From NCBI GenBank assembly GCA_946615875.1, contig CAMOIK010000002.1, positions 1 to 36,133 on the forward strand: a stretch of 36,133 nucleotides of DNA, in the 5' to 3' direction. The number at the start of each line of letters is the position of its first letter. The first letter of the stretch is position 1. The DNA comes from an uncultured Verrucomicrobiota bacterium. Its GTDB lineage: Bacteria; Verrucomicrobiota; Kiritimatiellia; RFP12; UBA1067. Positions 1 through 33,300 of the stretch are shown here, piece after piece. The translations under genes were made by a program, and so were the position numbers. Below the pieces are notes generated by a model, which ran no database searches, was not told where the DNA came from, and was given only the letters and a program-made list of their open reading frames with translations.

Positions 1-271
1 CGGGTGCTTCAGCCGGTTCCTCGGCGGCAGGTTCCTCCGTAACGGCGGGTGCTTCCGCCGGTTCCGTGACTTCCGCATCTGCAACCGCAGGAGCAGGTTC
101 GCCTCCATCGGCTACCGCCGGCGTCTCTGGCTCGACGACGTTGGCCGTCGCTTCCGCCTCCAGATCACGCAAAAGATCATCCAGGTCGCTTTGGGCAAAG
201 ACGCCCCTGGCGCATGCGGCCAAGACTACCGCCGCGCCGAGCGCGACCATGTTCTTCCTAATGTGCATCAT
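1..271 (-). CDS. Partial CDS (N-terminal ~90 aa; continues past the window start). Secreted protein in the position of the Amuc_1098-type pilus secretin.
   Basis: The minus-strand frame from ATG-ATG (271/268) stays open to the window edge. AAGGAG (revcomp of 282-287) lies 10 nt upstream. The translation MMHIRKNMVALGAAVVLAACARGVFAQSDLDDLLRDLEAEATANVVEPETPAV... shows a Sec-type signal peptide followed by an Ala/Glu/Pro-rich linker. It is absent from the ORF track because it is truncated. The secretin call is positional only. Confidence 0.45.
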   Translation of the reverse strand, partial: MMHIRKNMVALGAAVVLAACARGVFAQSDLDDLLRDLEAEATANVVEPETPAVADGGEPAPAVADAEVTEPAEAPAVTEEPAAEEPAEAP

Positions 272-304
272 ACGAACACTGCTCCTTAGAGTTTACGATG
301 AGAT

Positions 305-333
305 ATTATAGCGTATTTGCTTGCTCGTTTCAA
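305..333 (-). promoter_or_regulatory. Sigma70-like promoter TTGAAA-17 nt-TATAAT upstream of the secretin-like gene.
   Basis: The -35 TTGAAA is the revcomp of 328-333 and overlaps the TGA stop (330-332) of the upstream gene. The spacer is exactly 17 nt (311-327). The -10 TATAAT is the revcomp of 305-310. The RBS and ATG follow about 20-35 nt downstream. Confidence 0.45.
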
Positions 334-1451
334 GGGGCGTCAATACTTCTCGTCTTCCCCGTGGCAACATCCTTGAGCACCACGCGGGCGCTGTCGGCAG
401 AGAGCGATTTTATCTCCAAAACCTTGTATTTAGTGCCTTTCAGGTCGATTTCATCGCCAGCGACGACGTCGAATTCCTGCGTTTCGCCGCGGGTGAAGAC
501 GAGCTTGGCCTGCGTATCAACTGGCGTGTGCTTGACCCCCGCTACGATCCGCACGGCCTTTTTGTCGGCCTTGCGCACTATCGTCGCCACGGAAGCGTCA
601 ACCGAGCGCTCCATTCCCTTTCCGCCCTTGATGGACTTCTGCTTCGACTTCTTCTCGAAGGATTCGAGCACGTAGCCGGTGTCGCCGATGTCCCTGCCGA
701 CCATGACGGAGAAGCTCACGCCCTTCGTGCCATAGCCGGTCTTCTTCGTGTCGTCGCGGAAGTAGAGCAGCCAAGAGCCGTTGTAGGGCACCGACTTGTC
801 GCTCTCCAGATAGAACGACAGTCTGGTCTCCTTGAGCGGCAGCTGGAGCTTGAGCGATTCGAGGTCGTCCGGGTGCGACGCCGGATCCTGCGGATCGGTC
901 TGCGCCTCGAACTCTTCCAGGTTGGTGTAGCCGTCGCCGTCTAGATCTCCGGAGATGTCGTTCGGATCTAGCGGGTTCATGCCGTGCGCCTTCTCCCACT
1001 CGTCCGGGATGCCGTCGCCGTCGGAGTCGAGATCCTGCTTCTTCTCCTCCGGCTGCCTGGTCTTGCAGAACGGGCAGACCTTGAGGTCGGCGGGCATCGG
1101 CTTGCCGCAGCTCTTGTGCTCGGTATCGTCGCCCTGCTCGCAGAACACGCGCTTCTCCGAAGCGAGGAAGCTTCCAAGCGTCTCGGCAGGCTCGTCGATC
1201 CTAGACGGGTTCTCGTTCTCCTTCAGGATGATGTCGTAGGGGACCATGTCCAGCTTCTCCACGCCGGTGTCGCTGCGCTTGGAGATCGCGGCGGCCTGCT
1301 CGCCCGTCTCGCTGGCGAGCATTTCGGCGTCCTGCGATTTCTCTATTACGAGGAACGTGGCGCCCCCGGCGAGCGCGAGCACGCCCGCCGCAGCAGCCAG
1401 CCAGTCCCAGTGGGCGGCGAAAAAGCCCTTGTCTGACGATGCCGAAATCAT
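330..1451 (-). CDS. Membrane-anchored pilus-like system protein (Amuc_1099 position). It has an N-terminal TM helix, a Cys4 zinc ribbon, two thrombospondin type-3-like Ca-binding repeats and a C-terminal beta-rich domain.
   Basis: 373-aa ORF. The TM helix is WDWLAAAAGVLALAGGATFLVI. The zinc ribbon is C-x9-C...C-x2-C (CEQGDDTEHKSCGKPMPADLKVCPFC, about nt 1062-1145). The Ca motifs are DLDSDGDGIPDEWE and DLDGDGYTNLEEFE (about nt 885-1035). Its start overlaps the stop of the upstream gene by 4 bp (ATGA at 1448-1451). The family name rests on synteny only. Confidence 0.75.
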   Translation of the reverse strand: MISASSDKGFFAAHWDWLAAAAGVLALAGGATFLVIEKSQDAEMLASETGEQAAAISKRSDTGVEKLDMVPYDIILKENENPSRIDEPAETLGSFLASEKRVFCEQGDDTEHKSCGKPMPADLKVCPFCKTRQPEEKKQDLDSDGDGIPDEWEKAHGMNPLDPNDISGDLDGDGYTNLEEFEAQTDPQDPASHPDDLESLKLQLPLKETRLSFYLESDKSVPYNGSWLLYFRDDTKKTGYGTKGVSFSVMVGRDIGDTGYVLESFEKKSKQKSIKGGKGMERSVDASVATIVRKADKKAVRIVAGVKHTPVDTQAKLVFTRGETQEFDVVAGDEIDLKGTKYKVLEIKSLSADSARVVLKDVATGKTRSIDAP

Positions 1452-2458
1452 TTCTGCTCCTCCTCTCCTTCATTGCCAGCCTCGGCCGCCTCGCCGGAAG
1501 CCTTGGTGCCGAAGTCGTAAGTCGTGATCTTCATGGTGACGGTGAAGGGCACGTCGGTGACGGGATCTACGACCAGCCCCTTGCGGCGCACCTCGCTCTC
1601 GCCCTCGGCCGACGCTTCCTCTTCGCTGGCGCGTCCGCGCCCACGTCCGCGTCCGCGTCCGCGCGAAGGCCGCGCCTCCTCCTTGTCCTTGCCGCCAAGC
1701 GCGTCGCCCAACGCGTCGGTGGCGCGCTCGAACACCAGCGAATCCACCACGATGAACCTCTCGGTGCGGGCGAACTCGTTGATCGTCTTGACCAGCGCGA
1801 GGGGCCTGGCTAGGAACACTATGGTGTAGGTCTGCGCGTCGGCGAGCGGCTTCTCCTCGACCTGCTGCTGGCGGGTGTTGCGCCCCCTCGGCGGCGGCGG
1901 CGCCGGACGCGGCTGCTCCTCGGCCGCCTTGACGTCGCTCTTCTCCACGCTGACGAGCTGGACCGCGCCGTTGGTTGCGAGGGTATCGACGAAGAGCTTG
2001 ATGTCGTCCCACTGGCGCTGGAGCGTCGGCAGGGTCTCGGGCTTGGGCAGGCTGCCTTCGCTCAGTTCCCTGAAGCCGAAGGCGAAATCCTCGTCCACGA
2101 GCTTTCCGTTCACGCCGCCCGGAAGTGCGCGCTTCTCGATCGCCTCCTCGCGCAGCTGGTTGCAGAACTCGGCCACGGTGAGGCGCGGGAACGCTTTGTC
2201 GCCGCGAGACGCCACGTCGAACGCCTTGTCGAACCATATCGCAAGCGTCTTGTGGTTCTCCTCGATCGCCTTGACCGACGCCGCGCTGGGCGCGATCTTG
2301 GCGTTGCTCAGGCGCTTCACGTTCGCCTTCTGTCCTTCCAGCGTATCCTCGTTCTCGACCTTCTCCTCCCATGCGGCGTACGTCAAGTAGCCCAGGACGA
2401 GCGCGGCCACGGCGGCCACTCCGCCTATCGAACCCATCACGATCTTGTTCTTGTTCAT
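1448..2458 (-). CDS. Amuc_1100-family pilus-like protein (PilO-like position), 336 aa.
   Basis: The ORF-track entry 1448..3766 is over-extended. The supported start is MNKNKIVMG at 2458, which overlaps the pilM-like stop by 4 bp (ATGA). There is an N-terminal TM helix (SIGGVAAVAALVLGYLTYAAW). Segment-by-segment resemblance to my recollection of Akkermansia Amuc_1100: AKIAPSAASVKAIEENHKTL vs AEITPSRSSNEELEKEL; TVAEFCNQLREE vs TPTAFQNELKTF; TYTIVFLARPLALVKTINEFARTERFIVVDSLVFER vs PLEIAFQGDRESVLKAMNAITGMQDYLFTVNSIRIRNE. There is a low-complexity (RG)n/acidic linker before the last beta segment. Confidence 0.7.
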   Translation of the reverse strand: MNKNKIVMGSIGGVAAVAALVLGYLTYAAWEEKVENEDTLEGQKANVKRLSNAKIAPSAASVKAIEENHKTLAIWFDKAFDVASRGDKAFPRLTVAEFCNQLREEAIEKRALPGGVNGKLVDEDFAFGFRELSEGSLPKPETLPTLQRQWDDIKLFVDTLATNGAVQLVSVEKSDVKAAEEQPRPAPPPPRGRNTRQQQVEEKPLADAQTYTIVFLARPLALVKTINEFARTERFIVVDSLVFERATDALGDALGGKDKEEARPSRGRGRGRGRGRASEEEASAEGESEVRRKGLVVDPVTDVPFTVTMKITTYDFGTKASGEAAEAGNEGEEEQK

Positions 2459-4107
2459 TTCGCGGCTTCCTTCCTGGCCTCCTTGAACTGGAGCCTGACG
2501 GCGAACTGCTCCACGCAGTCGCCCTTTCCGACGTTCGGTTCCGCCTCCTGCGCCACGGAGTCCGGATCGACAATGGCGTTGGCTTTCAGGCGCGCGATCA
2601 CCAGGTCCTGCGCCGTCGTCTCCTTCGCGCCTTTCGCCTTGGCCCTGTCGACAAAGGCGTCGCTGCGGTCCTTCCAGCCGCGTATCGTCACCTTTCCGTT
2701 GCCCCAGCGCTCTATCCACAGGTCGTTGCCTATGGCCTGGCGGACCGTGTTGAGGTGGACCACCGTCCGCGCCCTGCGGAACATCAGGTCGCGCAGCGCG
2801 TCGGTCTTCGCGGCCTGCTCGTCCACCTTGGCCTGCGCCGCCTTGATCTCCTTGTCGTACTTGCGCACGGCGCTGTCCACGCCCTGTATCGCTTCCTGCT
2901 GGGCGCTCACCACGTCGATCTCGTGGTGCATTCCGAGCAGCGCGCAAACGCAGGCGGCGACGAGGCACGCCGCGCCGGCCGCGACGACGGGTATCTTCTT
3001 GACCTCCGCGCGCTCCTCGACGAGCGAAGGCGGCAGGAGATTGATCGATATGGGCGCGTTGCCGGCTGCGCGAACCGCCAGTCCCGCCGTGGCGGAAAGC
3101 ATGGCCGCCTCCGTGCCGAGCGCATCCTGGTTGACCGCGCTGCCGAACGCCATCATCGCGAACGGGTTGAAGAACTCGACCGCGATGCCCAGCGAGTCCG
3201 CAAAGAACGAGTCGATCTGCGGGAGCAGCGCCGTGCCGCCGGTGATGTAGAGCTTGGCGGGCATGCTGCCGTGCTGCTGGCTGCGGTAGAAGTTGATGGA
3301 GCGCGAAATCTCCGCGTGGAGGCGCGTGAGGACCGCGCGGCAGACTTTCGAGATTCTGTCGAGCGTGGGGTCTTCGTCCTCCGTGACGCCGCCCATCGAC
3401 ACGTAGGCGTTGTCGCGCTTGATCTGCTCGGCCTCCTCCAGAGTGCAGCCGAGCGCCTGCGCGATGTCCTTGGTGATGGTGTTTCCGGCGACCGGGATCG
3501 AGCGGTTGTATATCTTCTCGCCTTCGGAAATCACCAGCGACGTGGTCTTGGCGCCGATGTCGAGCATCACAGAGCACGAACCGTCGTCGCCGAGGATGCC
3601 GCGCATGGCGTTGGTGAGCGCGACCGGCGCCACGTCCACGATGTCCGGCGTGAAACCCGCGCCGGCGATCGCGTTTGTGATCGCCTCTATCTGCTCGATC
3701 TTCGCGGCGACTATGAGGACGGCCTTGTCGCCGTTCTCCGTGTCGCCGAGAATCTGGCGGTCGCACACCATCTCGTCGAGCGGAAACGGTATGTTCTGCT
3801 CGATTTCGTAGCGCACCATCTGCTCGAACTTGTCGTCGCCGCCCGCCTTCGCTATCGCCGCCGGACGGAGGAACGCCATTTGACCGGAGACGGAGACCGC
3901 CACGCGGCCAGGACGAATCCCCTTCTCGCGCACGATCTGCATCAGCGCTGGCGAAAGTATCGCGTCGGCGTTGCCGGCGTCGAGCGGAGCGGCGAGCGGG
4001 GCCAGCCCGTAGTTCACGAGCGTGAGGGCGCCGCCGGAGCCTGCTTCGTACTCCGCCAGCGCTATCCCGCTCGCGCCTATGTTCAACGTGAGAAACTTCT
4101 TGCTCAT
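2455..4107 (-). CDS. pilM: PilM-like actin-fold protein fused to a TM helix and a PilN-like coiled-coil/ferredoxin-like domain (Amuc_1101-type), 550 aa.
   Basis: The N-terminal ~350 aa show PilM/FtsA-like motifs (LNIGASGIALAEYE, MLDIGAKTTSLVI, IPVAGNTITKDIAQALGCTLEEAEQIK, LYITGGTALLPQIDSF). Then come LLPPSLVEERAEVKK and the TM helix IPVVAAGAACLVAACVCALLGM. After that is a coiled coil plus a ~120-aa C-terminal domain, as in PilN. Confidence 0.85.
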   Translation of the reverse strand: MSKKFLTLNIGASGIALAEYEAGSGGALTLVNYGLAPLAAPLDAGNADAILSPALMQIVREKGIRPGRVAVSVSGQMAFLRPAAIAKAGGDDKFEQMVRYEIEQNIPFPLDEMVCDRQILGDTENGDKAVLIVAAKIEQIEAITNAIAGAGFTPDIVDVAPVALTNAMRGILGDDGSCSVMLDIGAKTTSLVISEGEKIYNRSIPVAGNTITKDIAQALGCTLEEAEQIKRDNAYVSMGGVTEDEDPTLDRISKVCRAVLTRLHAEISRSINFYRSQQHGSMPAKLYITGGTALLPQIDSFFADSLGIAVEFFNPFAMMAFGSAVNQDALGTEAAMLSATAGLAVRAAGNAPISINLLPPSLVEERAEVKKIPVVAAGAACLVAACVCALLGMHHEIDVVSAQQEAIQGVDSAVRKYDKEIKAAQAKVDEQAAKTDALRDLMFRRARTVVHLNTVRQAIGNDLWIERWGNGKVTIRGWKDRSDAFVDRAKAKGAKETTAQDLVIARLKANAIVDPDSVAQEAEPNVGKGDCVEQFAVRLQFKEARKEAAK

Positions 4108-4188
4108 GGGGAAAGTGTTCCTTGTTCTCTTCTGCTTGATATCGGCTGGGGCGGCGTCACGGCTTCTTGCCGACGGCGCCGCGTCCGA

Positions 4189-4935
4189 TCACTGTATGAC
4201 CAGTTCGTAGTCGTTGGGGTTTACGAGGGCCCATATCGTCTTGGAGCGGTCCTGCAGGCCCTGGCGGCGTTCGATCATGGGTTCGCCGTTCTGCTGCTTG
4301 GCGTCCATGATGGTGGGGTCGTTCCAAAAAGCCTTTTCGAGCGTCTTGGGATGCGAGGGGATGCCCTTTATCTCGCTCTCGCAGTCGCCTGCCAGCACGT
4401 TGCCGTTGGAATCCTTCACGACCAAGCCGACGGCCTTGGGCTCGCCATACTGCTCAAGGTATGAGGGATGGAGGCAGACGGAGGCGGCGTGGGTGCCGCG
4501 CGGGATGTTGCTGTAGGTGACGGTCTGCTCGAAGTAGGAGTAGGGGGCGAGCTTGGCCTGGCCTTCCTTGTCCTTGGACGTGGCGCTCTTGGTCTCGAGC
4601 AGCACATGCCACTCGAACGTCAGCTGGTCGATGCACCGCTCCTGCGTCTGGTACCTCGCCTCGAGGACAATCCATGGGCGCGGCTTGCCCGTGTAGGCCC
4701 CGATGGTGGAGCCGCCGGATATGCTGGGCGCGGAGAGCGTGGCCTGGCGGCCGAGTTTCGGATACTGCTCGATGCGCACGAGGACTTCCTTGCTCTCTTC
4801 GCCGTCCTCGGCGGCCGCGGCGGCGGCCCTGGCGTTGCGGCCGCCCGCCGTGCGCGAACCTGTCCGCGACGGGGCGGCGACGAGTGCGGTGGCCGCGATG
4901 GCGGCGAACCCGGCTATCAGAAACTGCTTGTTCAT
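4189..4935 (-). CDS. Secreted protein, first gene of the pilus-like cluster (Amuc_1102 position), 248 aa.
   Basis: Signal peptide MNKQFLIAGFAAIAATALVAAP, then an Ala/Arg/Glu-rich linker and a beta-rich body. It lies directly upstream of the pilM-like gene on the same strand. The family name is by position only. Confidence 0.7.
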   Translation of the reverse strand: MNKQFLIAGFAAIAATALVAAPSRTGSRTAGGRNARAAAAAAEDGEESKEVLVRIEQYPKLGRQATLSAPSISGGSTIGAYTGKPRPWIVLEARYQTQERCIDQLTFEWHVLLETKSATSKDKEGQAKLAPYSYFEQTVTYSNIPRGTHAASVCLHPSYLEQYGEPKAVGLVVKDSNGNVLAGDCESEIKGIPSHPKTLEKAFWNDPTIMDAKQQNGEPMIERRQGLQDRSKTIWALVNPNDYELVIQ

Positions 4936-4998: not shown

Positions 4999-5985
4999 TC
5001 ACAATACCTTCATCTTCGGCAGATCGTTGATGTCCACCAGTCCCACGACGCGCCCGGCGGCGTCGCAGACCGGCAAGTCGTCTATGCGCCGCTTCTCGAA
5101 CACCTTGAGCATTTCGGCGGCGAACACGGTATCGCGCACGAAGAGCGGCGACTTCGTCATGTGCCCGCCCACCGGCGAGGCGAGGAGGGCGGAGGCGTCG
5201 CCAGCCGTCATCATGCGCCGGAAGTCGCCATCGGTGAAGATGCCGAGCAGCCTGCCGTCGGCATCGACGACGACCGCGCTGCCGGCCTTCGCCTTCGTCA
5301 TGGTCAGCAGGGCGTCCATGACGGGCGTCTGCGGCGATATCGTGGCGAGGCGCTCGCCGGTGCGCATTATGTCGGTCGCCTTGAGGACGAGCGCGCGGCC
5401 TATGGCGCCCGCCGGGTGGTTCATGGCGTATTGCGAGACGTCGAACTTGATCGCGTCGAGCATGACCATGGCGAGCGCGTCGCCCATGGCCATGGTGGCG
5501 GTGGTGGAGTTGGTGGGGGCCATGCCGAACGGGCAGGCCTCCTTGCCGCACGGTATCTCCAGATGGATGTCGCTCATCGCGGCGAGCGACGAGGCGGGGC
5601 GGCCCGTGACGCCGATCACCTTGAGGCCGTGGCGGCGGATGGCCGGGATCAGGCGCAGTATCTCCTCGGACTCGCCGGAGAACGAGAGCGCGATCAGCAC
5701 GTCGCGCGGCGCGACCATCCCAAGGTCGCCGTGCATCGCCTGCACGGGGTTGAGGACGATCGAGCGCGTGCCGGTGGAAGCGAATATCGCGCTCATCTTC
5801 TCGGCGACGGCGAGGTTCTTGCCGACGCCGGTGACGACGATGATGCCTTCCGAGCGGATGCAGCCGAGCATCAGCTCCACGGCCTTCGTGAAGCTTTCGC
5901 CCAGCGCGTCGCGCGTGCGGCGAAGTCCTTCGATCTCGATGTCGAAGACTTCGCGCGCCCTTGCCAGCATCTTTTCCTTCGTCAT
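4999..5985 (-). CDS. kdsD: KpsF/GutQ-family arabinose-5-phosphate isomerase (SIS domain plus two CBS domains).
   Basis: 328 aa. SIS motifs VVTGVGKNLAVAEKMSAIFASTG and LSFSGESEE. C-terminal CBS pair (GSAVVVDADGRLLGIFTDGDFRR; IDDLPVCDAAGRVVGLVDINDL). Confidence 0.9.
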   Translation of the reverse strand: MTKEKMLARAREVFDIEIEGLRRTRDALGESFTKAVELMLGCIRSEGIIVVTGVGKNLAVAEKMSAIFASTGTRSIVLNPVQAMHGDLGMVAPRDVLIALSFSGESEEILRLIPAIRRHGLKVIGVTGRPASSLAAMSDIHLEIPCGKEACPFGMAPTNSTTATMAMGDALAMVMLDAIKFDVSQYAMNHPAGAIGRALVLKATDIMRTGERLATISPQTPVMDALLTMTKAKAGSAVVVDADGRLLGIFTDGDFRRMMTAGDASALLASPVGGHMTKSPLFVRDTVFAAEMLKVFEKRRIDDLPVCDAAGRVVGLVDINDLPKMKVL

Positions 5986-6012
5986 TGCCTCGTTGCCAGA
6001 TTGCCCGGTCGT

Positions 6013-7050
6013 TTACTTCGTGGTGGACTGAAGAAGGGTGACGCAGATGGTGCCGACGATGTCCTCGGCGGAGCAGCCGCGCGACAGGTCGTTCATCGCC
6101 TTTGCGAGACCCTGGAGGTTGGGGCCGATCGCGTCCGCCTCGCCGAGGCGCTGCGCGATCTTGTAGCCGATGTTTCCGGCCTGCAGGTCCGGGAAGATGA
6201 ACACGTTGGCGTTGCCCTGGACCTCGCCGCCCGGATTCTTCAGCTGGCCGACGGCGGGGACGATGGCGGCGTCGAACTGCATCTCTCCGTCCATCTTGAT
6301 GCCCTTCTCGGCGAATACGGGGCGCGCCAGCTCCACGGCCTTCTGCACCTTCTCCACCAGGTCGCCGGCGGCGGAGCCTTTCGTCGAGAAGGAGAGGTAG
6401 GCCACGCGGGGTTCGTTGCCGGTGAGTTCGCGGTATGTCTGGGCGGTCGCAAGGCCGATATCCACGAGCTGCTCAGCCGTCGGGTTGGGAATCACGGCGC
6501 AGTCGCCGAACGCCAGCACGGTGTCGCCCGAGGGAGTCGGACGCTTGAGATCCATGATGAAGCAGGACGAGGCCGTCTTCACGCCCTTCTGCGTGCCGAG
6601 AGTGTGGAAGGCGGCGCGCAGCATGTCGCCGGTCGAGGCGATGGAGCCGGCGACGAGGCCGTTGACGCGGCCCAGCTTGACCATCATGCCGCCGAAGTAG
6701 ATGCGCTTCGTGCGCAGCGTCTTCTGCGCGGCGGCCAGGTCGATGATCTTCTGCTTCTCGGCGGGCTTGCGCGCCTCCTTGGCGTTCCAGGCCTCGAGGT
6801 AGGCGGCCTCCAGCTCGGCGTCGCCCTGCGTGTAGTCGATCGTCTTTATGCCGCGCTCGGAGAGGCTCAGTCCGGCCTTCGCCTCGGCGGCGGCTATTTC
6901 CTCCGCCGTGCCCAGCACTACGGGAGTGCAGATCTTGCGGTCGATGCAGGCGCACGCGGCGGCGATTACGCGCGCGTCCATGCCCTCGGGCAGCACGACC
7001 GTGCCGTGCAGTTTCGAGGCTTTGGAGATTATTTCCTGTATAGCATTCAT
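6013..7050 (-). CDS. pta: Phosphate acetyltransferase (short PTA_PTB form).
   Basis: 345 aa. Motifs VVLPEGMDARVI, RIYFGGMMVKLGRVNGLVAGS, SFSTKGSA, VFIFPDLQAGNIGYKIAQRLG and NDLSRGCSAEDIV. It lies directly downstream of ackA. Confidence 0.92.
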   Translation of the reverse strand: MNAIQEIISKASKLHGTVVLPEGMDARVIAAACACIDRKICTPVVLGTAEEIAAAEAKAGLSLSERGIKTIDYTQGDAELEAAYLEAWNAKEARKPAEKQKIIDLAAAQKTLRTKRIYFGGMMVKLGRVNGLVAGSIASTGDMLRAAFHTLGTQKGVKTASSCFIMDLKRPTPSGDTVLAFGDCAVIPNPTAEQLVDIGLATAQTYRELTGNEPRVAYLSFSTKGSAAGDLVEKVQKAVELARPVFAEKGIKMDGEMQFDAAIVPAVGQLKNPGGEVQGNANVFIFPDLQAGNIGYKIAQRLGEADAIGPNLQGLAKAMNDLSRGCSAEDIVGTICVTLLQSTTK

Positions 7051-7081
7051 TGTCTTGTTCTTGCTTTGTGTTGTATCGCAC

Positions 7082-8236
7082 CTAACCCAGAAGACGGACG
7101 GTGTCTTTTGCGATCATGAGCTCCTCGTTGGTGGGGAGGACGATCACGGGGATGGCGGAACCTTTCGCGGAGATCACGGCCGTCACGCCGCGCGTCTTCG
7201 CGTTCGCCTTCCTGTCGAGCTTGACGCCGAGCGCGCCCAGCCGCGAAATGACGCGCTCGCGCGCCTCCGCCGAATTCTCGCCGATGCCGCCGGTCATCAC
7301 GATCGCGTCGGCGCCGCCCACGACAGCGTTGTAGCCGCCGATGTAGAAGGCCACGCGATAGGCCCACATTTCGAGCGCGAGCTCTGCGGCCTTGTCGCCC
7401 TTGGCGGCGTTGGCGCAGATGTCGCGCATGTCTCCGCCATTGACGCCGCTCACGGCCTGCAGGCCCGACTGCTTGTTGAGGAGCCTATCCATCTCGGCGG
7501 GGGTCTTGCCCTCGGCCTCCATTATGGAGAGGATGGCGGCGCCGTCGATGTCGCCGCACCTGGTGCCCATGACGAGACCGGCGAGAGGGGTGAGACCCAT
7601 GGAGGTATCGACGCACTGGCCGTTCTTGACGGCGGCGAGGGAGGAGCCGTTGCCGAGGTGGCAGGTCACGAGGTTCACCTTGGCGAGGGGCTTGCCGAGG
7701 AACTCCGCGGCCGCCTGCGTGACGAACTTGTGGCTGGTGCCGTGGAAGCCATACTTGCGTATGCCCATCTTTCTGTAGTACCTGGGGTCGATGGCGTACA
7801 TTGCCGCGCAGTCAGGCATGGTCTGGTGGAACGCGGTATCGAAGACCGCCACGTTCGGCACCCCCTTGAAGATCTGCTGGCACGCCTCGATGCCGCCCAG
7901 GTTCGCCGGCATGTGCAGCGGCCCGAACTTAACGAGCTTCCTGCACTTCGCCATCACCGCCTTGTCAACCTTCACGGAATCCTTGAAGACCTCCGCGCCG
8001 TGCAGTACGCGATGTCCGATCGCGTCGATGTCCGTCGGGTTGCCGAGGTCGGCGACGACCTGCTTCAGGGCCTCGCTGTGGTTGGCGGGCCCGCCCGCGC
8101 CTATGCGTTCCACCAGCCCTTTCGCCAGGCGCGTCTGCGTCGTCATGTCGAAGAGCTGGTATTTCAGCGAACTCGATCCGGAGTTCACCACCAGCACCTT
8201 GCGGATTTCCTTCTTGCCTTTTGCTGTCTTCTTCAT
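7082..8236 (-). CDS. ackA: Acetate kinase.
   Basis: The ORF-track start (8317) is over-extended by 27 codons. The supported start is MKKTAKGKKEIRKVLVVNSGSSSLKYQLF at 8236. Motifs HRVLHG, FDTAFHQTMP, YGFHGTSH, CHLGNGSS, MGTRCGDID and GGIGENS. 384 aa. Confidence 0.92.
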   Translation of the reverse strand: MKKTAKGKKEIRKVLVVNSGSSSLKYQLFDMTTQTRLAKGLVERIGAGGPANHSEALKQVVADLGNPTDIDAIGHRVLHGAEVFKDSVKVDKAVMAKCRKLVKFGPLHMPANLGGIEACQQIFKGVPNVAVFDTAFHQTMPDCAAMYAIDPRYYRKMGIRKYGFHGTSHKFVTQAAAEFLGKPLAKVNLVTCHLGNGSSLAAVKNGQCVDTSMGLTPLAGLVMGTRCGDIDGAAILSIMEAEGKTPAEMDRLLNKQSGLQAVSGVNGGDMRDICANAAKGDKAAELALEMWAYRVAFYIGGYNAVVGGADAIVMTGGIGENSAEARERVISRLGALGVKLDRKANAKTRGVTAVISAKGSAIPVIVLPTNEELMIAKDTVRLLG

Positions 8237-8286
8237 GTGTGTATTTGTATGCCTTGGTTGTTTTCGCCGCGTTTCACCCGGCTTGC

Positions 8287-11200
8287 CTAGTTCTTGATGC
8301 GGATGCGGAAGAAGCACTTCTCGCCGGCATCCTTGGGCTTGGGCACGACGAACTCGCCCGTCTCGAACGTATCGTCGTCCTTCACGTATATCGGGACTTC
8401 ATCGACGCCAGCCGACTTCCAGGAGGATTCGGTGAGGCCGGTCAGGTCGGTGACATACTCCACCTCGCCGTAGAGGTCCGGCGTGTCGGACGCCCCGGTG
8501 CTGGTGTAGAGCCCGCGCGCCCTGCTGGAGACCGCGACGCCGCTGCCGCTCGTCTGCAGGACCTTCGCGCTGCCCCTGGCCGAAAGCGTCACCGTCGCCT
8601 CGTCCGCGCCGATGGCCGAGAATGTCACGTTCGTGGCGTTCGCGGTCGTCACCGTGCCGTCCATGGCGTCCTTCACGGCGAGCAGATACGAGGAGTGCCC
8701 GGACGTGTCAGCGTCGGTGGCTAGCGCGGCGATGCCAGCGTTGTTGATCACGCTGAACACGTATGCGGCCAGGCCGCCGACGGCCGGGGAGCCGTTCTGC
8801 TGATTCTGCAGGTTGCCGGATAGCGTGCGGTTGATCTCGACGCCCGAGTCGAGCGTGTCGTTGAGGTTCTCCGTGCCGTTGTCAAGCCTGCCCCTGTTCT
8901 GCACCATTTCCCAGGCGTCGGGCAGGCAGTTGCCGTTGGTGTCGGCGTCCTCGATGTAGAGGTCGAACGTGTCGCCGAGCCCCATGGTGTCGTCGATCAC
9001 GATAGTGGACGGCGTGAAGATGTCCTTGGCGGCGCCGTCGCGCTTGCAGACGTAGCCCCACGACTCCCAGGCGTCCTTGCGGCGCGTCGTCCCGTAGGAG
9101 TTCATGTCGATGTAGCCGCGCACGTAGTACTTGCCGGGCATGAGGCCGATAAGCGTCGCGTTCACGTCATGCACGGCGTTGGTTGCCGACACGGACGCCT
9201 TGGTGCGCACGTAGGTGCGCGCCACCGGGTCGCCCGAGAAGTCCGGCGTGTCGAACGCCTCGATCCTCACCTCGCCGGCGTTCAGCACGCTGGCGGGGCC
9301 GAAGTATTTCGCGCACACCTTGACCGTCCCCATGCTGTTCGTCAGCGCGTTCATGCGGAACGTGTTGTTGGCGTTCGCCGACCAGTAGTCGCTGCGGAAC
9401 TTGGTGTTGTACATGGTCACGCGCCAGGAGTAGTTCTTGCTCGGGTCGAGCAGGTCGCCGGCATAGACGTCGGGCGTGAACGTATAGACGCCGTTCAAAT
9501 CGCGCGCCGGGGCGCGGCGCACGCCGCTGTCGTAAACGACCGTGTTGCCGTCGCGGACCTGCAGCTTGAAGGCCGTGTAGGAGTTGCTGTCGATCTGCGT
9601 CCCGGCAGCCTCGTTGTCTATCTTCATGGTCCACCGGAACGTCGGGCGGGAGCCGAACACGGCCGACTGCTGCGAACCGGGCGTCTGCGGGACCGGCACG
9701 GTGCGGTAGTCGTCCGAATCGAAGTGCCTGACCGTCGCTATCGTGTAGAGATTGTTCGTAGTGTTTAGCGCGATGGAGCCGTTGCCCAGCACGATGCGGT
9801 AGGTCACCTCGGTCGGGTCGATGCCGCTCGCGACAAGCTTTTCGCTGCCCATCACCTCGCTCTGGAAGTAGTCCCAGTCGATGTCGAAGGCTCCGTTCTC
9901 CAGCACGTCGCCCTCGTAGAGGTAGCTGCGCTGGTCGAGGTTGATCACCTTGTCGAAGATCACGCGGTTCTCCATCTCCAGCGTGTCGATGCCGCTGCCG
10001 TTCACGAGGGTCCGCACCACGCGAACGCGCTCGTACTTGCCGCCGGAAAGCTCGCCCGCCACGAGCGCCGCCTCGTCGCCGTCAGACGAGCCGTACATCG
10101 CCTTGCGGTCGCTCGAAGCCTGCAGCAGATCGACGCGCGTGATGATCGGCGACGTATCTGTCAGCTCGATTTCCGCCACGCCTTGGTGCCAACCGACATC
10201 CGCGACAGTCGAGCCCATTGGCTCGCCATACGTGTACTTGCCGTCGCCGTCGAGGTCGTAGAACGCGACTATCGTGTTCTTCCCTTCCTTTACATAGCCT
10301 TTGTTCGCCTCGCCGAGATAGAGTTCCAGCTTGTTGGCTTGCAGCGTCGGAATGCGGGCGATGTAGTGGAACCTGAACTGCGCAACGTCGATGTCGATCG
10401 TGTTGCCAGATTCATCTTCCGCTCCGTAGAGTTTCGACGTATCTAGCGTGAACTCGCCAGTCACCACGTTGATCGTGCCGATCGTGGCTCCGTTCAGCGC
10501 CAGCGTCGCCTGCGACGAATTGCCGGACTGTATCACGCTGATACCTTTCAGTGTGCGCCACTCCGCCTCATAATCCAGCAACCAGACATTCCCACGACCA
10601 TACTTGTTCACATCGGCCAAATAGGTCTCATACGTTCCCTTGCGGACTCTGACGCCGTAAATCGTCCACTGGTAAACCCTCGAATTCGCCTCCTGGAGAA
10701 CAAGGAGTTCCACGTCGCCTGCCTTGATATATCCCGGAGCAAGGCTGCCCTGGCGGATTTCTCCGCTCACGGAACCGAGATCGAAATACCTCAATGCATC
10801 GACGCCAGGAAGAAGGGTGTAAGACGCATCAGGCACGACGAGTCCCTGCTTGGTGAACGTCTGGACGACGATGCTGCCGACCGCGTTGTTCAGCTGGTTG
10901 TTATATTCGTTCGATTCTCCGCCGCCTTCACCGTCACCCTCCGAAGGAGCAACGAGCGGCTGGTCGCCGTTGTACCGCAGCGTCACCTTGAGCGTCGGAA
11001 TCGGCATGTCTTTGCGCTCGTCGTCGCTATTGATATGACTGATGACCGGCGCGAGGATGGAGGTCGTGAACTGGCTGTAGCGGCGCTCCGCGTAGTTGGA
11101 CCAGCCGTCCTCGTCCTTGTCGAGATCGGCATCCCAGGCGTAGCGGCTGACGTAGGGGACGCCCTGGGCGTCCTCCCAGACGTCCTCCATGAAGTCGTGG

Positions 11201-14200
11201 TCGGTGAAGACCTCTCCGGCGTAGAGCTGGCCGATCTTGAAGAAGTAGTCGCTGTCGTAGGGACTGACGGACTTCGCCTTGACGGGCGAGAAGGCGACCT
11301 CAAACTTGAAATACTCGCTGAGGAGGAACTCCGTGAAGTTGGAGAGGCCGTCGTTGTCGTCGTCGTCCGCGGCGGCGCCCTTGACACCGTAGATGTCGGT
11401 CCACCAGTCTGGCAGGCCGTTCTTGTCGAAGTCCTCGCGGTTCACGTATTCATCGAGGAATTCCTTGGCGGGCAGCATTCCCTTGGCGAGATCGCGGATG
11501 TACGCCTCGTATGCGGACATAAGCGCGCCGTTGCGTTCGATTTCGGTGTCGGCGGCCAAGTCGGCCGGTGCGCCGTAATTGGCCCTGGCGTATTCCTCCC
11601 ACCAGTCGGGCAGATCGTTGGCGTTGGCGTCCGCACCCGTTTCCTGCCATGCGGTCTCAGCGCCCTGCCCGTCCCAGTAGGAGTCTGCGCGCTTGGCGAA
11701 CGCCGAGCCGACCGGCACCAGGTCGGATGTGCCCTCGAAGCCAAGACGGTAGTCGAACAGGAACTGCCTGTAGAAGGCCGCCGAAATCACGCTGTTGGTG
11801 ACGACCGTCCTGTTGTTTATGCTCAACGACCCGCCGCCGTCATGCCAGAACATATTGGCGTACTTGTTGTATAGGTATTCGTCCTCGTAGGTCGTCACGT
11901 TCGAGTTGTACGGATTCATCGTATTGGGGAACGCGAAGCTGTCGGAATCCTGGAAGGTCGAGGGCGTGTATCCCGCGTAGTTCTCAGACCAGTAAACGCT
12001 GTCGGACACGGAACCGCAGAGTTTCGGGAGGTGGGCGACCATGTTCTCCATCCAAGGCACCACATGCTTGGAAGTGTAAACGGTGTTTGCCACGGGAGAC
12101 TGCTGGATCGCAGCCCACCAACCGACCTTCAGGCTGTCGCCGATGTCAGCGGACGGGTTGTCGGGGTTCCTGACGTTGCCGAGGACGTTGGCGGCGAAAC
12201 CCGTCGGCTCGGTGCGGACATACTGCGCATCAGTCGCGTTGGGCAGCGTTGACATATTGTAGTACTGGATGAGTTCCGGAGGAAGCTGCTCGGTGTCGGA
12301 ACCGAGGTTGTCGTTGCGCCGCGCCCCTTCGCACCACTTGCCGAACACCTCCAGCCTGAGCGACTTCACGTCATCGACGGAGAACGACTTGTTGTAGCTG
12401 CCGGAAATGTCCGCCTCCGACCTCGCGCCATCCCAGGTGCGGACTTCGGCGACGCGCCCCTTGTAGAAGTCTGTCGCAATGTCGCTCCAATCCGCCGACG
12501 CCGCCGCCTGCTCGTGGCCGAACGCGCCGTCGCCGTTTGCCCTGCCGCCCATGATTGTGACGGAACGGACGATGCGGTACATGTCATATGGGAAGTCGGC
12601 ATAGCCCTGCGGGTTCTGGACTATGATCGTGACGCCGTTCGCAGGGATGAGCGTGGTGTCGGCGCTCGTCTCGAACCTTCCGTTGCGGTAGAGGCGCAGC
12701 TTTTTGCCGTCGTATGTCGCGGCTATGTGCACCCACTCGCCGTCCACAACCTTGTCGCCGGTGACGCGGGAGGAAAGTTCCGTCGTATTCTGCGTCTCTG
12801 CGAACACATGGCCGGAAGCGTCGATGCCCAGCGCGAAGCACATCCTGATTACGGAGTTCGACGAACTGCCGTGCTCGTCGTGGGACTCCAGATCCCACGC
12901 GCCGTAGCGCGAGGCGCGGCTCACGATGTACTGATCCTGTCCGTTCTCGGATTCGTCGGGCTTGATCCACGCCTCGACAGTGAACTGGCGGAAGAGGTCG
13001 GTGCCGTTCATGTTGCGCGTAATCGGCTTGTAGGAGATCGCGGCGCCGGGAGCGTCCTTTCCACCGAACCAGACGCTCTGGCGACGGGCGGGATCACTGA
13101 AGTCCAGCGGATCTGAGTTCTTGCGGGAAAGGCTCTTCACCTCGCCGGAGTCCGTCCTCCAGTCGTTGTCGGTGTCGTAGCCTTCGTTCTGCTCGAACGA
13201 CGCGATGTAGTCGTGGTTGTAGCAGTTCCACGCTTCGCGCAGACTGTAGTAGGGAGTGAATGCGATTTCCGTGCCGAGAATGCTCGTGAAGACCTGCTCG
13301 TTCAGAGGATTGAGGATTTCGTTCTGGTAGTAGAGCGTTGTATAGGACGGGCTGCCCGCCACCTGGTAGGTCGCGTTCGTTACAAGGTTCGTCGTGATGC
13401 CGGATATGGCGCGGACGAACTCGCCGTTCTCGTCGATGTCATAGACCGGCTGCCCCATGTAGGAGAGATAGTTGGTCGAGACTATCTCGTCCATCCCCAC
13501 AATCGGGTCGAGCGATGGCACGGTTGAGTCCGTCATCCAGAGCGGCGACGGGTCTGTGTGGGCGGAATCGGGGGATGTGACGTTCGCGAGGATTGCCTCC
13601 TCATAGTTCCGGAAACCGTCGCCGTCGGCGTCGCACTCCGCGATACCCATCATCCACGGGAAGCGAATCGGGTCGTTCGGCGGCAGGTCCTCGTTGTCCC
13701 ATCCCACCCATGCGTTGCACCAGGCACTCAGCGTGGTGGACGTGGAGTGGGCGCGGGCGATCACGTCGTTGGCCGTCGCGCCGAACCTGTTGCCGAGCGA
13801 GCCGAGAATCGGGTTGAGGCCGTGGAACAGTTCGTAGTAGTCATCCATGCCGTCGCGGTCCGTATCCCAGAGGCGTGGATCGGTCCCGACGTACTCAAGT
13901 TCATCAATGCTCTCGTCGCGGTACTGCCTGGTCAAGACCTCTCTCGCATCGGTCGTAAGCGTCATGACCGGCGTGGCGACGACCCAATTCGTAGCTGTTG
14001 CACCTTCATAGAGGACGTAGTAGTTGTTGCCGTCCTCATTGTAGATGTTGGTGGCGTAGGTCGAGCCATTGCGCAGCTCCCAGAGCAGCCTGCCGCTCAG
14101 GCTCCTGTCCTGAACAGGTGTGTTCGCCACCATTACGCGCTGACGGATGCGCAGCGGCGGCAGCATATATTTGTTGCCGAGATCGACGCCAGCATGGTCC

Positions 14201-17200
14201 CACGCCTTCGGAGGCGCGGCAAAGTAGCCGAGCATTTCGAGGTAGTTCGGGTAGCGCTTCACGATCTTTGCGAAATTCGGGTAGCCGGCGTCGACAAGCG
14301 TATCGTAGTCCTTCGCCGTGAAAGGCTCAATGTAGCTCGTGCGCAGGAAGCCCTTGTCGCCGTTCCACTGCCCCTGGACGAACGTGCCCGTACCCTCGTC
14401 GAACGCCGGGCAGTCGCGGCCGACGAGCGGCGTCCACGGATCGTCGTAGCGGAAGTGGCGCATCGCCTGCACCATGTATTCCTGCCAGTTCTGGAGGCCG
14501 TCGCCGTCCCAGTCATTGTCCGCAAATCCGATCCCCGGCACTGAAGTGGCGTCGGCGCGGGTCGGGTCCATGCCGCAGAGGATGTGATATACCTTGTCCT
14601 CGGCATTCGTGTAATTGCCCCAGTGCGCCTGTGCGGCGGCACGAAGGTCGTCGTAGATGCCGCTCAGCGGAGTGCCGGACGGGAAGACGTCTACATTCTT
14701 GCCGTCTTCGTCCGTAGTCGTCGTGACAATGTCGTCGTTGAGGAAGAGGAGTCCCGCATACTGGCGCTCCCACGGGTCGGGCAGACCATCAAGGTCTGTA
14801 TCGATGGTGCAGGGGTTCATGCCGCCGCCAGGAATGCACAATTCGCCGCCGCCGTCGGACGGGTCGCCGTAGATTGCGAAGTGGCGGACGGTCGTGACGA
14901 TGGTCTGACCCCAGCGGTTGAAGGTGTAGTCGCTTGACCAACTTCTGCTGCGTTCCGTGCCGTCGCTGATTCCGTCGCCGTCGGTATCCTTGTTGCGCGG
15001 GTCGGTCGGCATGAACTTGTTGTACCACTGGTAGTTCGGATTCGGCTTGTCTGCGCTCGTCTGACTGGGATGGTATGCATAAATGGTCGGGCAGTCGATA
15101 TACGCGGCGCTCGAATCCGTGCCGGCGAACTCGTTCACTAACGAGAGGCCGTCGCTGTAGCCCTCATAGAGACCGAGCGAATAAGGCCAGATCTTGCTGC
15201 CGTTCCAGTAGAGCTTGTCCTCGTCGTCCCCGCGCTTGTTGAAGTCGATGTTCGGGTTGACTCCAATGTAGAGTTCCCAGCCGTCGGGCACCGCGTCGCC
15301 GTCCGTGTCGGCGCCATGCTGCGACTGTTTGTACTTCGTCTCCGAATCGCCCCACGAGAACTCATCGAACGTTTTGTTCGGGTTGGTCGTGCCGGCGGAG
15401 ATTATTGCCTGGATGGTGGTCTTCTTGGCCGCTAGCTTCGCCTGGTCGTCCGCGAGATTCCTGAGGCCGACGATATAGCGGAACTTGAGAAGCAGGAACT
15501 CGTCGATGGCGGTGTAGGGAGCCGTGTTGATGGCGCGTCCCGCCGTATATAAGCTGCCGCCGCTCCACCAGCGCTTGCCCTTGGAAACCGAGCCGTCGTC
15601 GCTGCGGAACCATGCCGTGCGCGGGTCGAAGCCGAAGTAGTTGTGCACCTGATGGTGGTAGAGCGTCACCGTGTTCGTCACGATACCCGCCTTCGGATCG
15701 AAATCGATAGTCCGCTTCTTCGCGTAGCGCTTGGAGTAGTTCTCCGTGTCCTCGGTCGCGACGATGAAGCCGCCGTTGAAGCGCTTGACCTCGAAGCCGT
15801 TGCCGGTGACGGTAATCGCGATTTTGTTCGTGTTGATGTAGCCCGTGTATGCCGTGTCGAGGATCCAGAGCGTTCCGTTCGTGGCGGTGTAGATGTAAGT
15901 GTAGGCGCCCAGCGGGTCGGAGGCATCCGCCTTCCAGCAGGCCATGAAATCGCCGTCGAGGTTGGCCGCGCCGTTGTTGTCTTTGCTGGCCGCGAGCGGA
16001 TTGGAGTTGTACATCACCTCGTAAAGGTCGCTGAGGCCGTCGCGGTCGGTATCCCAGTGCACCGGGCTGGTGCCGATCAGGAACTCCTCGCTGTCGGTGA
16101 TGCCGTCGTTGTCGGTGTCGGTGTCGGTCCAGGATCCGGCGATGTTCGGGTTGTATATCCTCGCGATGTCCTTGGGCGCGATGGCGTCGCTGTAGTCCTC
16201 CAGGTCGGCAAGGTTGAACCTGCTGCCGACGAGCTGGTTGGTGCCGGTGCCGACGGTCGCCGCATACCACATATAGTATTCATAGCCGTCGGGCATTCCG
16301 TCGCCGTCCGTATCGTCCGTCGTGGGGTCGGTGCGGTTCTCTACGGTGAAGCCCCAGGCGACGTTGTTTGCGTTGTGGCTGCGCCATGTGAACGTGATGT
16401 AGTCCTTGGCCGCCTTCTGCTGCGCGTCAAAGAGATCGTTGCCGTTTTCGGAATCGAGCCAGATACCGATCTCCGCCTGGTCGAACGAATAGAGATCGCA
16501 CGGGCTGAGATAGTGGATGTCGGTCGCGTCGTTCTCGTTGGTATATGCGACGAGATTGACGTAGTTGGTCACGACGACAGGCTCCGTGGCGCCGATCGGC
16601 GTGAAGGTGCGCAGCCAGGCGTCGGTGGGAACCGTCTCGTCTTCGCCCGTGTCGCCGTTCGTCACGATCCTGTCGATGCCGCTGGAGATGTTGCCGTCGA
16701 TATACGACCTGTCGGCGTAGAAGAGCCTGTTGTTGCCGTCGGAGGTCGTGACATTCACGGCGCCGCGGTAGTGGATTGTCGCGAGAAGGTTTGTGACGAG
16801 GTTCAGCTCGTCCTCTTCGCAGATCGGCCAGGAATTGTCGAGTTGCCCCTTCGTGTAGAGTTTCTTCAGCAGGTAGTCGCGGCGCTCGAATACCTCGCGC
16901 AGCAGCGCCTTCTTCTCGATCTCGCTCATGCAGAGGTCGGAGAGCCATCCGTATTTGGTAGCCCGCCCGGTCCTATATGCGGTGTATTCCTCGTCTCTCG
17001 CCATGAACATACCGAAGTTGAGGCCGTCGTGGTAGCCGCGGATCTCCCTGACCGCCGTGAAGGCCTGGCCGCTCGTCGCCCAGCCGCTGACCGCGCCTGG
17101 GACGATGGTGGAGGTCGTATCCGCGGCGGCGGGATAGTAGTCTCCGTCGTCGTTCAGCGAGTTGATTGCGACGAGTTCCCCGGCGTTGTCGTCGGTGTCC

Positions 17201-21399: not shown

Positions 21400-21430
21400 T
21401 GTGTTTCCCCTTCCCTGTTTAGAAATGGTG

Positions 21431-22012
21431 CTACTTGCCGCCCAGGCTGCGCAGAGTCTGTTCGGCGGTGTTGTGGTTTTCCGCAAGCTTTTTGACGAGC
21501 GCGTCCAGCTCGGCCTTGAGCGCCGCCTTCCTGTCTTCGCCGGCCCCCTCGGCCTCGGCGTCGGCCAGCCGCTTCTTGGCCGCTTCAATTTCCGCCATTG
21601 TCGCCGCCTCCCTGGCGCGGTATTCGTCCAGCGTCTTGACGTGTTCGGGATGCTGCTCCTTCCAGAGTTCGCGGCGCAGGTTGTCGCGCATCCTGGCGCG
21701 GTCCAGTTCGAGATTCTTCTCCGCCTCGGCCACCGCGTCCTCCAGCTCCTTGATTATCTCCGGCTCCAGCTTCGCCTCCTTCGCCTCCTCCAGGTTCTGG
21801 CGGGCGCGGGCGATTTCGCCCATCGTCTTGCGCTGGGCGGCCTTTTCGTTTTCGAGCATCTTGAGATACTCCGGATTCTTCATGCGGTCGTAGATGGCCG
21901 TCTCCGGCTCGGCGGCGGATTCGCCGCGCCGCATCCAAAGGGCCGCCAGGATCGCGGCGGCGACGGCGGCCGCGGCGACGACGAGCAGAACTATCTTTGT
22001 TTTCCTTGACAT
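21431..22012 (-). CDS. Single-pass membrane protein with a long Glu/Lys/Ala-rich coiled coil (193 aa), between the two giant genes.
   Basis: The preferred start is MSRKTKIVLLVVAAAAVAAAILAALW at 22012, with AGGA about 10 nt upstream. An alternative ATG at 22054 would add 14 polar residues. The remainder is heptad-like (EEAKEAKLEPEIIKELEDAVAEAEKNLELDRARM...). I recognise no family. Confidence 0.7.
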   Translation of the reverse strand: MSRKTKIVLLVVAAAAVAAAILAALWMRRGESAAEPETAIYDRMKNPEYLKMLENEKAAQRKTMGEIARARQNLEEAKEAKLEPEIIKELEDAVAEAEKNLELDRARMRDNLRRELWKEQHPEHVKTLDEYRAREAATMAEIEAAKKRLADAEAEGAGEDRKAALKAELDALVKKLAENHNTAEQTLRSLGGK

Positions 22013-31772: not shown

Positions 31773-31809
31773 GTCCCACACCTCCTTCCGTACCAAAACT
31801 TCCTTTTTG

Positions 31810-31825
31810 TGCCGCATTTGCGGCA
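31810..31825. promoter_or_regulatory. Perfect 7+2+7 inverted repeat TGCCGCA-TT-TGCGGCA in the leader of giant gene A.
   Basis: Read directly from the sequence. It lies 38-53 nt upstream of the ATG at 31772. It could be a protein operator or a short RNA hairpin. Confidence 0.35.
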
Positions 31826-31868
31826 TTTTACACCTCATATAGGCATCTACGCATTCCGCACCGAATAG

Positions 31869-31954: not shown

Positions 31955-31970
31955 GGGGGCGTATTCAAAT

Positions 31971-33269: not shown

Positions 33270-33300
33270 GTTCTACCGTTCCTTTCGATTGTGTGAACAT

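Follow-up and report, generated by a model that had tools for sequence, protein, structure and literature searches.

What machine is encoded by the five genes at the left end of contig CAMOIK010000002.1, from an uncultured bacterium of the Kiritimatiellae (GenBank assembly GCA_946615875.1), and how is it related to the Akkermansia muciniphila cluster that includes Amuc_1100, a heavily studied probiotic effector? The whole stretch analyzed, hereafter the window, comprises 36,133 nucleotides (nt). Its left 4.9 kb carries the five genes co-directionally on the minus strand, in the 5′ to 3′ order Amuc_1102-like, Amuc_1101/PilM-like, Amuc_1100-like, Amuc_1099-like, and the start of an Amuc_1098-type secretin (coordinates from open reading frame [ORF] calls in Table 1). 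The results suggest that the product of the region is probably a scaffold spanning the cell envelope, part of a machine that resembles a type IVa pilus and belongs to the Amuc_1098-Amuc_1102 (MUL2) type in gut and rumen Kiritimatiellae, with glycan attachment and uptake as its most likely function. The locus clearly belongs, although as a divergent member, to a family already described in NCBIfam, Pfam, and the literature, and is not a new system.

The Akkermansia cluster has been called a type IV pili cluster, with Amuc_1098 designated PilQ (PMC10688800; PMC5332112), and it is also described as the MUL2 locus, with an important part in acquiring mucin (bioRxiv 10.64898/2025.12.30.696933; PMC13174399; PMC12418764). 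MUL2 is conserved in Akkermansiaceae and other Verrucomicrobiales, less so in Chthoniobacterales, and is absent from Methylacidiphilales; its neighbors include genes for a secretion channel protein, dephospho-CoA kinase, and rho (PMC13174399, 2026). Kiritimatiellae are unmentioned in that paper. The NCBI taxonomy treats Kiritimatiellota and Verrucomicrobiota as separate phyla of the Planctomycetota-Verrucomicrobiota-Chlamydiota (PVC) group, and NCBI already names proteins from Kiritimatiellae metagenome-assembled genomes (MAGs) as "Amuc_1100 family" and "Amuc_1099 family."

Family Assignment by Profile Models

All four complete proteins of the locus match Amuc models of NCBIfam, in the Akkermansia order, and by these profile comparisons the matches appear distant yet significant. 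The curated equivalog cut-offs of these models are 55 bits for Amuc_1102_rel, 650 for Amuc_1101_fam, 180 for Amuc_1100_fam, 50 for Amuc_1099_fam, and 750 for Amuc_1098_fam, while that of the PilM model TIGR01175 is 133 bits. The 550-amino-acid (aa) protein scores 381 bits against Amuc_1101_fam (E 1.1e-113) and 173 bits against TIGR01175; the 373-aa protein, 70 bits against Amuc_1099_fam (NF042425; E 2.4e-19); the 336-aa protein, 67 bits against Amuc_1100_fam (NF038287; E 1.7e-18); and the 248-aa protein, 18 bits against Amuc_1102_rel (NF042424; E 1.3e-3). Curated thresholds are passed by window proteins for the Amuc_1099 and PilM models only. Despite the cut-offs, the E-values are significant for the 1099, 1100, and 1101 families among the window proteins and for the 1098 family among the secretins of relatives.

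The 248-aa protein has a hydrophobic N-terminus (aa 3-23), which a low-complexity Ala/Arg/Glu linker separates from a conserved domain of ~170 aa. Its link to Amuc_1102 is strengthened because 15 of 31 clade homologues match the Amuc_1102_rel model (best 3e-8) and because it has a precomputed match, without a "weak" mark, to Pfam PF28178 (Amuc_1102), as do all 120 listed relatives. Searches of the PDB with the single sequence returned nothing relevant, the family profile (A4) reached no PDB entry, and no prepilin motif was found in the protein. The Amuc_1102 structure, 7DSZ, has been reported as archaeal type IV pilin-like (PMC13174399).

Predicted Structure of the Amuc_1100-Like Protein

The 336-aa protein, read from an internal ATG of a longer GTG-initiated ORF, has an N-terminal transmembrane segment (aa 4-29). 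Both this protein and its listed relatives have precomputed matches to PF28028 (Amuc_1100), again with no "weak" mark on that of the window protein. A single-sequence search of the PDB returned nothing relevant, and its matches to Sm D1 were discarded as spurious, caused by an Arg-Gly repeat in the query. A profile built from 26 homologues (A1) reached the Amuc_1100 crystal sequences 6LAD and 6KNY with E ~1e-5.

In the AlphaFold model (predicted local distance difference test [pLDDT] 75), the transmembrane helix runs into a long helix, accompanied by further helices, a two-fold repeated alpha-beta-beta core, and an acidic tail. When this model was compared with the PDB using Foldseek, the ten best matches were all Amuc_1100 chains (reference crystals 6KNY, 6LAD, and 6LAF), with E-values of 1e-7 to 9e-6, target template-modeling (TM) scores of 0.66-0.75, and 12-14% identity. 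Directly after them ranked PilO of Myxococcus xanthus (3JC8_Oa; E 2.9e-3, probability 0.99), followed by PilO of Pseudomonas aeruginosa (2RJZ, E 2.2e-2; 5UVR). As judged from the predicted model, the protein has the Amuc_1100 fold and also matches PilO, which is characterized by a ferredoxin-like core and a coiled coil in addition to a transmembrane helix. A PilO/PilN-like fold of Amuc_1100 itself has already been stated (bioRxiv 10.64898/2025.12.30.696933). The Amuc_1100-like family comprises 1,744 clusters at 50% identity (E<=1e-3) in a library of 1.84 billion proteins.

A repeat, RGRGRGRGRGR, with acidic flanks occupies aa 264-276 of the Amuc_1100-like protein (1631-1669, minus strand) and is disordered in the model; the Arg/Gly-rich stretch is retained in the clade consensus.

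A PilM-PilN Fusion in the Amuc_1101 Position

The 550-aa protein begins with a cytoplasmic actin-like PilM domain (aa 8-347), identified by the TIGR01175 score above cut-off and by Pfam PilM_2 (PF11104; E 2.5e-44). This domain is followed by an INLLPP motif, a transmembrane helix, and ~150 periplasmic residues, such that PilN is represented, as a fusion to PilM, by its INLLP motif, single transmembrane helix, and periplasmic part. Within the motif, I, N, L, P, and P are invariant across 26 aligned homologues. A profile of the C-terminal part (A6) matches M. xanthus PilN (3JC8_Na; E 4.8e-6), and the alignment begins at the INLLP of PilN itself (residues 5-9). The Pfam PilN model did not match the PilN-like part, and hhalign of this part against the 1100 family aligned the transmembrane region alone. 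Read from the gene sequence, PilM and PilN-like parts are a single polypeptide.

INLLP is the peptide by which PilN binds PilM, and the fusion would therefore hard-wire the PilM-PilN contact. Since the Akkermansia profile is also ~600 positions long (608 in Amuc_1101_fam), the C-terminal extension on PilM is a trait of the family.

The Amuc_1099-Like Protein in the pilP Position

The 373-aa protein is anchored by a transmembrane helix (aa 17-37) and contains TSP3-type calcium-binding repeats (aa ~142-190; Pfam TSP3_bac, E 3.6e-12) and an all-beta C-terminal region (aa 200-372). Its family has four invariant cysteines, C104, C115, C126, and C129 (C-x10-C-x10-C-x2-C), in a zinc-ribbon-like arrangement beside the TSP3 repeats, on the predicted periplasmic side of the transmembrane helix, and 9-12 of 31 members give weak matches to zinc-ribbon Pfam models. 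A periplasmic zinc-ribbon-like motif is unusual.

No structural relative could be assigned to this protein. Neither the PDB (best E 0.01, TM score at most 0.15) nor BFVD yielded a significant match to its AlphaFold model (pLDDT 79); PilP and GspC were absent from its top PDB structural matches, and the family profile found no relative in the PDB. PilP is a lipoprotein whose beta-sandwich domain contacts the secretin, whereas the 373-aa protein is anchored by a transmembrane helix and has no lipobox. Identity as a PilP or GspC homologue is unsupported, with no structural match to either.

The Secretin Start and a Conserved Promoter-Like Element

The fifth gene opens with ATG 271 and leaves the window at its left edge after 90 codons. 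These encode a signal peptide, the conserved beginning of the mature protein (Q-S/D-DLDDLL), and the first part of a linker rich in Pro, Glu, and Ala. Each of the four public contigs that have exactly this locus stops within this linker stretch, probably owing to an assembly break in low-complexity sequence. The 90 N-terminal codons in the window have no family match of their own. Over its first 34 aa, however, the fragment shares 76% identity with the beginning of a syntenic 1,231-aa protein from L005. Among relatives with a long contig, L005 is the closest, and its other locus proteins show 63-88% identity to those of the window. The 1,231-aa protein matches Amuc_1098_fam (NF042912; E 7e-125) and Pfam Secretin (E 6e-34). 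Together with two more distant relatives, its Amuc_1098_fam matches lie at ~1e-125 (~418 bits), and the same three secretins also match GspD (E ~1e-37), PilQ (TIGR02515; E ~1e-32, under cut-off), and MshL.

In ~68 related species, the syntenic gene encodes an Amuc_1098-family secretin. The Kiritimatiellae secretins are 1,012-1,250 aa long, and because the Amuc_1098_fam match begins only at residues 208-296, they carry an acidic Pro/Ala-rich N-terminal linker of 200-300 aa. The mature N-terminus, AQ|DDLDDLLKDLE, is almost invariant in about 75 species (77 loci compared). A lipobox, LAAC, in the signal peptide of the window protein had raised the idea of a liposecretin; it is kept in only 21 of the 77 loci, and the idea was dropped.

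The secretin ATG is preceded, at a distance of 33 nt, by the promoter-like element TTGAAA-17-TATAAT, part of which coincides with the stop codon of the Amuc_1099-like gene. An element of the form TTGAAC-N17-TATAAT occurs at the same junction in 66 of 68 related loci, compared with 2% of background 130-nt windows.

Organization of the Locus

Coordinates of the genes and sequence elements are collected in Table 1. A hydropathy scan places a hydrophobic N-terminal segment in the 248-aa, 336-aa, and 373-aa proteins, as well as in the 90-codon fragment. The 4-nt overlap between the PilM-PilN and Amuc_1100-like genes is kept in 78 of 82 related loci, and that between the Amuc_1100-like and Amuc_1099-like genes in 74 of 79.

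Table 1. Genes and sequence elements of the Amuc_1102-to-Amuc_1098-like locus (positions in the window)
Feature	Position	Strand	Size and basis
Amuc_1102 (MUL2A)-like secreted protein	4189..4935	-	248 aa; NF042424 and Pfam PF28178
Amuc_1101 (MUL2B)-like PilM-PilN fusion	2455..4107	-	550 aa; TIGR01175, Amuc_1101_fam, PilM_2
INLLPP motif	3028..3045	-	aa 355-360 of the PilM-PilN fusion; homologue alignment
Transmembrane helix of the PilN-like part	2923..3003	-	aa 369-395; hydropathy scan, maximum Kyte-Doolittle (KD) value 2.5
ATGA overlap, PilM-PilN stop / Amuc_1100-like start	2455..2458	-	sequence
Amuc_1100-like PilO-fold protein (predicted)	1448..2458	-	336 aa; NF038287, PF28028, AlphaFold/Foldseek
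ATGA overlap, Amuc_1100-like stop / Amuc_1099-like start	1448..1451	-	sequence
Amuc_1099-like bitopic membrane protein	330..1451	-	373 aa; NF042425, TSP3_bac
Sigma-70-like promoter element TTGAAA-17-TATAAT	305..333	-	11/12 consensus matches
AAGGAG Shine-Dalgarno upstream of the secretin ATG	282-287	-	sequence
5′ end of Amuc_1098-type secretin gene	1..271	-	90 codons; N-terminus identity and synteny

A sequence-only reading of this DNA had proposed a complete, high-GC, and strongly diverged Amuc_1102-to-Amuc_1098-like locus with two ATGA overlaps. Its gene order is borne out by five co-directional genes whose family models follow the same succession, and both overlaps are present. GC content across the region is 0.60-0.67, and the divergence it noted is evident in the low identity to Amuc_1100 and in NCBIfam scores mostly below curated cut-offs. 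The putative secretin it placed fifth agrees with the identity of the fragment to a syntenic relative matching Amuc_1098_fam and Pfam Secretin. The checks which that reading had called for all favored it, namely, the NCBIfam searches, the structural comparison with Amuc_1100 and PilO, and, through the syntenic relative, the secretin identity of the fifth gene. The claim of completeness did not hold: the left edge falls after codon 90 of the fifth gene, so that the locus is incomplete within the window. That reading had also noted no pilin, prepilin peptidase, or PilB/PilT gene in the window; indeed, when all six frames of the 36-kb window were scanned, none contained a prepilin-type motif, and inspection revealed no PilB, PilT, PilC, or prepilin-peptidase gene among the other window genes examined. 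An Rfam scan of the window gave no match, and the window contains no tRNAs.

Distribution and Genomic Neighborhood

Relatives were sought by scanning species-representative genomes with the PilM alignment, a scan whose reach was the Kiritimatiellae clade; 109 were found, and 80 loci were kept. Almost all of the kept loci come from gut and rumen Kiritimatiellae MAGs (goat, sheep, yak, cattle, and human gut samples), and essentially all have the order ackA, pta, kdsD/kpsF-like, 1102, PilMN, 1100, 1099, secretin. Downstream of the secretin, coaE and rho are found in 33 of the 52 loci with enough sequence. Four bins with a Kiritimatiellae-type locus (L017, L019, L048, and L058) are titled Faecalibacterium, Anaerovoracaceae, Gemmiger, or Muribaculaceae, which looks like mis-binning or mislabeling.

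In L005, 3.5-5 kb past the secretin (19370-21014), lie a T2SSF (PilC/GspF-like) gene and a gene for a 414-aa protein with a prepilin-type leader (RRAFTLIEMLIV), AFTLIEM. These two genes indicate that the lineage owns parts of a type IV filament. None of the other 80 loci showed their linkage to the locus.

Several neighboring genes of the window were also annotated, all on the minus strand. Positions 4999-8317 encode an arabinose-5-phosphate isomerase (KdsD/KpsF family), pta, and ackA, a block that keeps its synteny with the pilus-like locus across almost all of the 80 related genomes. Beyond it are two giant ORFs, 8287-21588 (4,433 aa) and 22056-31886 (3,276 aa), with Laminin_G_3 (ConA-like lectin) domains and, in the second, an additional Gly_rich_2 domain; their likely starts are M64 in the first and about M39 in the second, and a signal peptide comes next in both. 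The relatives L001, L005, and L007 have a similar giant gene with Laminin_G_3 upstream of ackA. Positions 31971-35424 encode a major facilitator superfamily (MFS) sugar transporter (gluP/NagP/fucP-like) and mnmG; here, a listed 463-aa ORF with a TTG start (31927-33318) was rejected as a spurious frame (21% Arg), the real 432-aa transporter gene being 31971-33269.

Discussion

The proposed mechanism assigns a part to each of the five products. The Amuc_1102-like protein would be exported by a Sec-type route, the PilM-PilN fusion and the PilO-like protein would form an inner-membrane alignment pair, and the Amuc_1099-like protein, from the position of its gene, may bridge this pair to the secretin. 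The 4-nt overlaps would couple translation of the three middle genes, while the secretin may additionally be transcribed from its own promoter and made separately and in larger amounts. A motor ATPase, a platform protein, and the fiber subunits would be encoded elsewhere in the genome. By analogy with Akkermansia genetics, its most likely use is to attach to complex glycans of the host or the diet and take them up, rather than motility.

Several observations weigh against this interpretation. Four of the five families score under their NCBIfam equivalog cut-offs (67 of 180, 381 of 650, and 18 of 55 bits in the window, and ~418 of 750 for the secretins of relatives), and the secretin domain itself lies outside the window, as would any pilin, ATPase, or platform gene, all of which are absent from the window. 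The Amuc_1102 assignment of the 248-aa protein, for its part, depends on weak or precomputed profile matches. The connector role of the Amuc_1099-like protein is suggested by gene position only, because no PilP/GspC fold match was obtained. Amuc_1100 has been placed at the outer membrane or cell surface in Akkermansia (PMC5332112), a location that fits an inner-membrane PilO-like role poorly. Finally, the suggested role in glycan uptake is carried over from one distant organism.

Other explanations were considered, the nearest being that the scaffold belongs to a type IVa pilus of the ordinary kind, which would act in adhesion, twitching, or DNA uptake and have no particular connection to glycan acquisition. 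The PilM score above the TIGR01175 cut-off, the detectable PilN and PilO relationships, the matches of relatives' secretins to PilQ, GspD, and MshL models, and the PilC/GspF-like and prepilin-leader genes near the locus of a close relative are all compatible with such a pilus, yet it would be expected to have a PilP-like protein, which is lacking here, and the extra Amuc_1102-like and Amuc_1099-like proteins are specific to the Akkermansia-type cluster. Moreover, the only genetic evidence cited in these reports ties the homologous cluster to mucin acquisition, and an ordinary pilus is considered unlikely. A type-II-secretion-like channel that carries proteins across the outer membrane in the folded state (glycoside hydrolases, for example, or the two giant proteins with lectin domains whose genes lie 3-27 kb upstream) is very improbable: PilM and an INLLP-containing PilN are hallmarks of type IVa pili and not of type II secretion, neither a GspC HR-domain match nor GspE, GspL, or GspM genes were found, and housekeeping genes (ackA, pta, kdsD-like) stand between the giant genes and the locus. 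Such a channel could nevertheless account for the GspD matches of relatives' secretins (E ~1e-37), for the bitopic nature of the Amuc_1099-like protein, which GspC shares, and for the synteny of giant secreted Laminin_G_3 proteins in the window and its relatives.

The resemblance to the Akkermansia cluster could also be superficial, arising from a generic PilM/secretin neighborhood with unrelated hypothetical genes in between. While 12-14% identity to Amuc_1100, null single-sequence PDB searches, and NCBIfam scores mostly below cut-offs might be taken to point this way, four independent family models match in the right order, Amuc_1100 ranks first by both profile and fold search, and the coaE-rho flank agrees with the one reported for Akkermansiaceae. 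With the family models, the A1 profile, and the fold match taken together, a superficial resemblance is refuted for practical purposes and retains a negligible probability. A more far-reaching possibility, which is considered doubtful, is a distinct PVC-wide apparatus for glycan capture and import, made up of the PilMN, PilO-like, Amuc_1099-like, and secretin scaffold and the Sec-exported Amuc_1102-like protein, that operates without a canonical prepilin-processed pilin, has a four-Cys, calcium-repeat protein with a new beta fold in place of PilP as the link to the secretin, and has a secretin that is separately and strongly transcribed. If true, it would represent a new functional class of secretin machine, vertically inherited beside coaE and rho since before the split between Akkermansiaceae and Kiritimatiellae.

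Under the favored interpretation as a MUL2-type scaffold, the published range of MUL2 (Verrucomicrobiales) is extended to a second PVC lineage, which is an incremental advance. The whole cluster is present in fixed gene order in ~80 gut and rumen Kiritimatiellae species, and traveling with it are the PilM-PilN fusion, the 4-nt overlaps, the promoter-like element, and the coaE-rho flank. The sequence-only reading had described the locus as conserved well beyond Akkermansia, which is correct for these ~80 species, although this conservation was already present in databases and the literature. Its view of an ancient PilMNOPQ-like machine stands for the PilM, PilN, and PilO relationships but not for the pilP position, where no PilP/GspC fold is detectable. 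The present analysis makes a few small additions: an explicit description of PilM-PilN as a fusion, a PilP test that the Amuc_1099 family failed, and the four-Cys motif, along with the conserved promoter-like element of the secretin gene and strict synteny over ~80 Kiritimatiellae species. The comparative set of invariant residues and constant features supports Amuc_1100 as a PilO-type assembly component, and not a pilin.

Comparison with Known Systems

GspC is a bitopic inner-membrane protein, and the locus shares with the system for type II secretion (T2SS; GspC/L/M/D) a gene for a bitopic inner-membrane protein adjoining the secretin gene. In addition, the secretins of relatives resemble the GspD model, and the ferredoxin-like fold of PilO is common to GspM (the match to 5HL8 is weak, E 8). 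Unlike in the T2SS, GspL, GspE, and a GspC HR domain were not detected in the locus, and the cytoplasmic partner is PilM rather than GspL.

The locus is closer in composition to the type IVa PilMNOPQ complex of P. aeruginosa and M. xanthus (3JC8), with PilM, a PilN defined by INLLP and a transmembrane helix, a PilO-fold partner, and, judging from relatives, a secretin, and with the gene order M-N-O-(P position)-Q. In contrast to that complex, PilM and PilN are fused in one polypeptide, the pilP position is taken by a transmembrane-anchored four-Cys/TSP3 protein with no PilP fold match, an additional Amuc_1102-like gene lies upstream, and pilin and ATPase genes are not adjacent.

Differences from A. 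muciniphila Amuc_1098-Amuc_1102 (MUL2) include the host, which belongs to Kiritimatiellota and not Verrucomicrobiales, the low identity (12-14% to Amuc_1100) with scores under equivalog cut-offs in four of the five families, and the RG-repeat insert in the Kiritimatiellae Amuc_1100 homologue. The Kiritimatiellae secretins also differ, with 1,000-1,250 aa compared with a family profile of 805 positions and with the acidic Pro/Ala-rich N-terminal linker of 200-300 aa. Nevertheless, the two loci share five gene families in identical order, an Amuc_1100 homologue with the same fold (predicted model compared with crystals), and a long PilM protein with a C-terminal extension, followed downstream by coaE (dephospho-CoA kinase) and rho, as reported for the MUL2 locus of Akkermansiaceae (PMC13174399).

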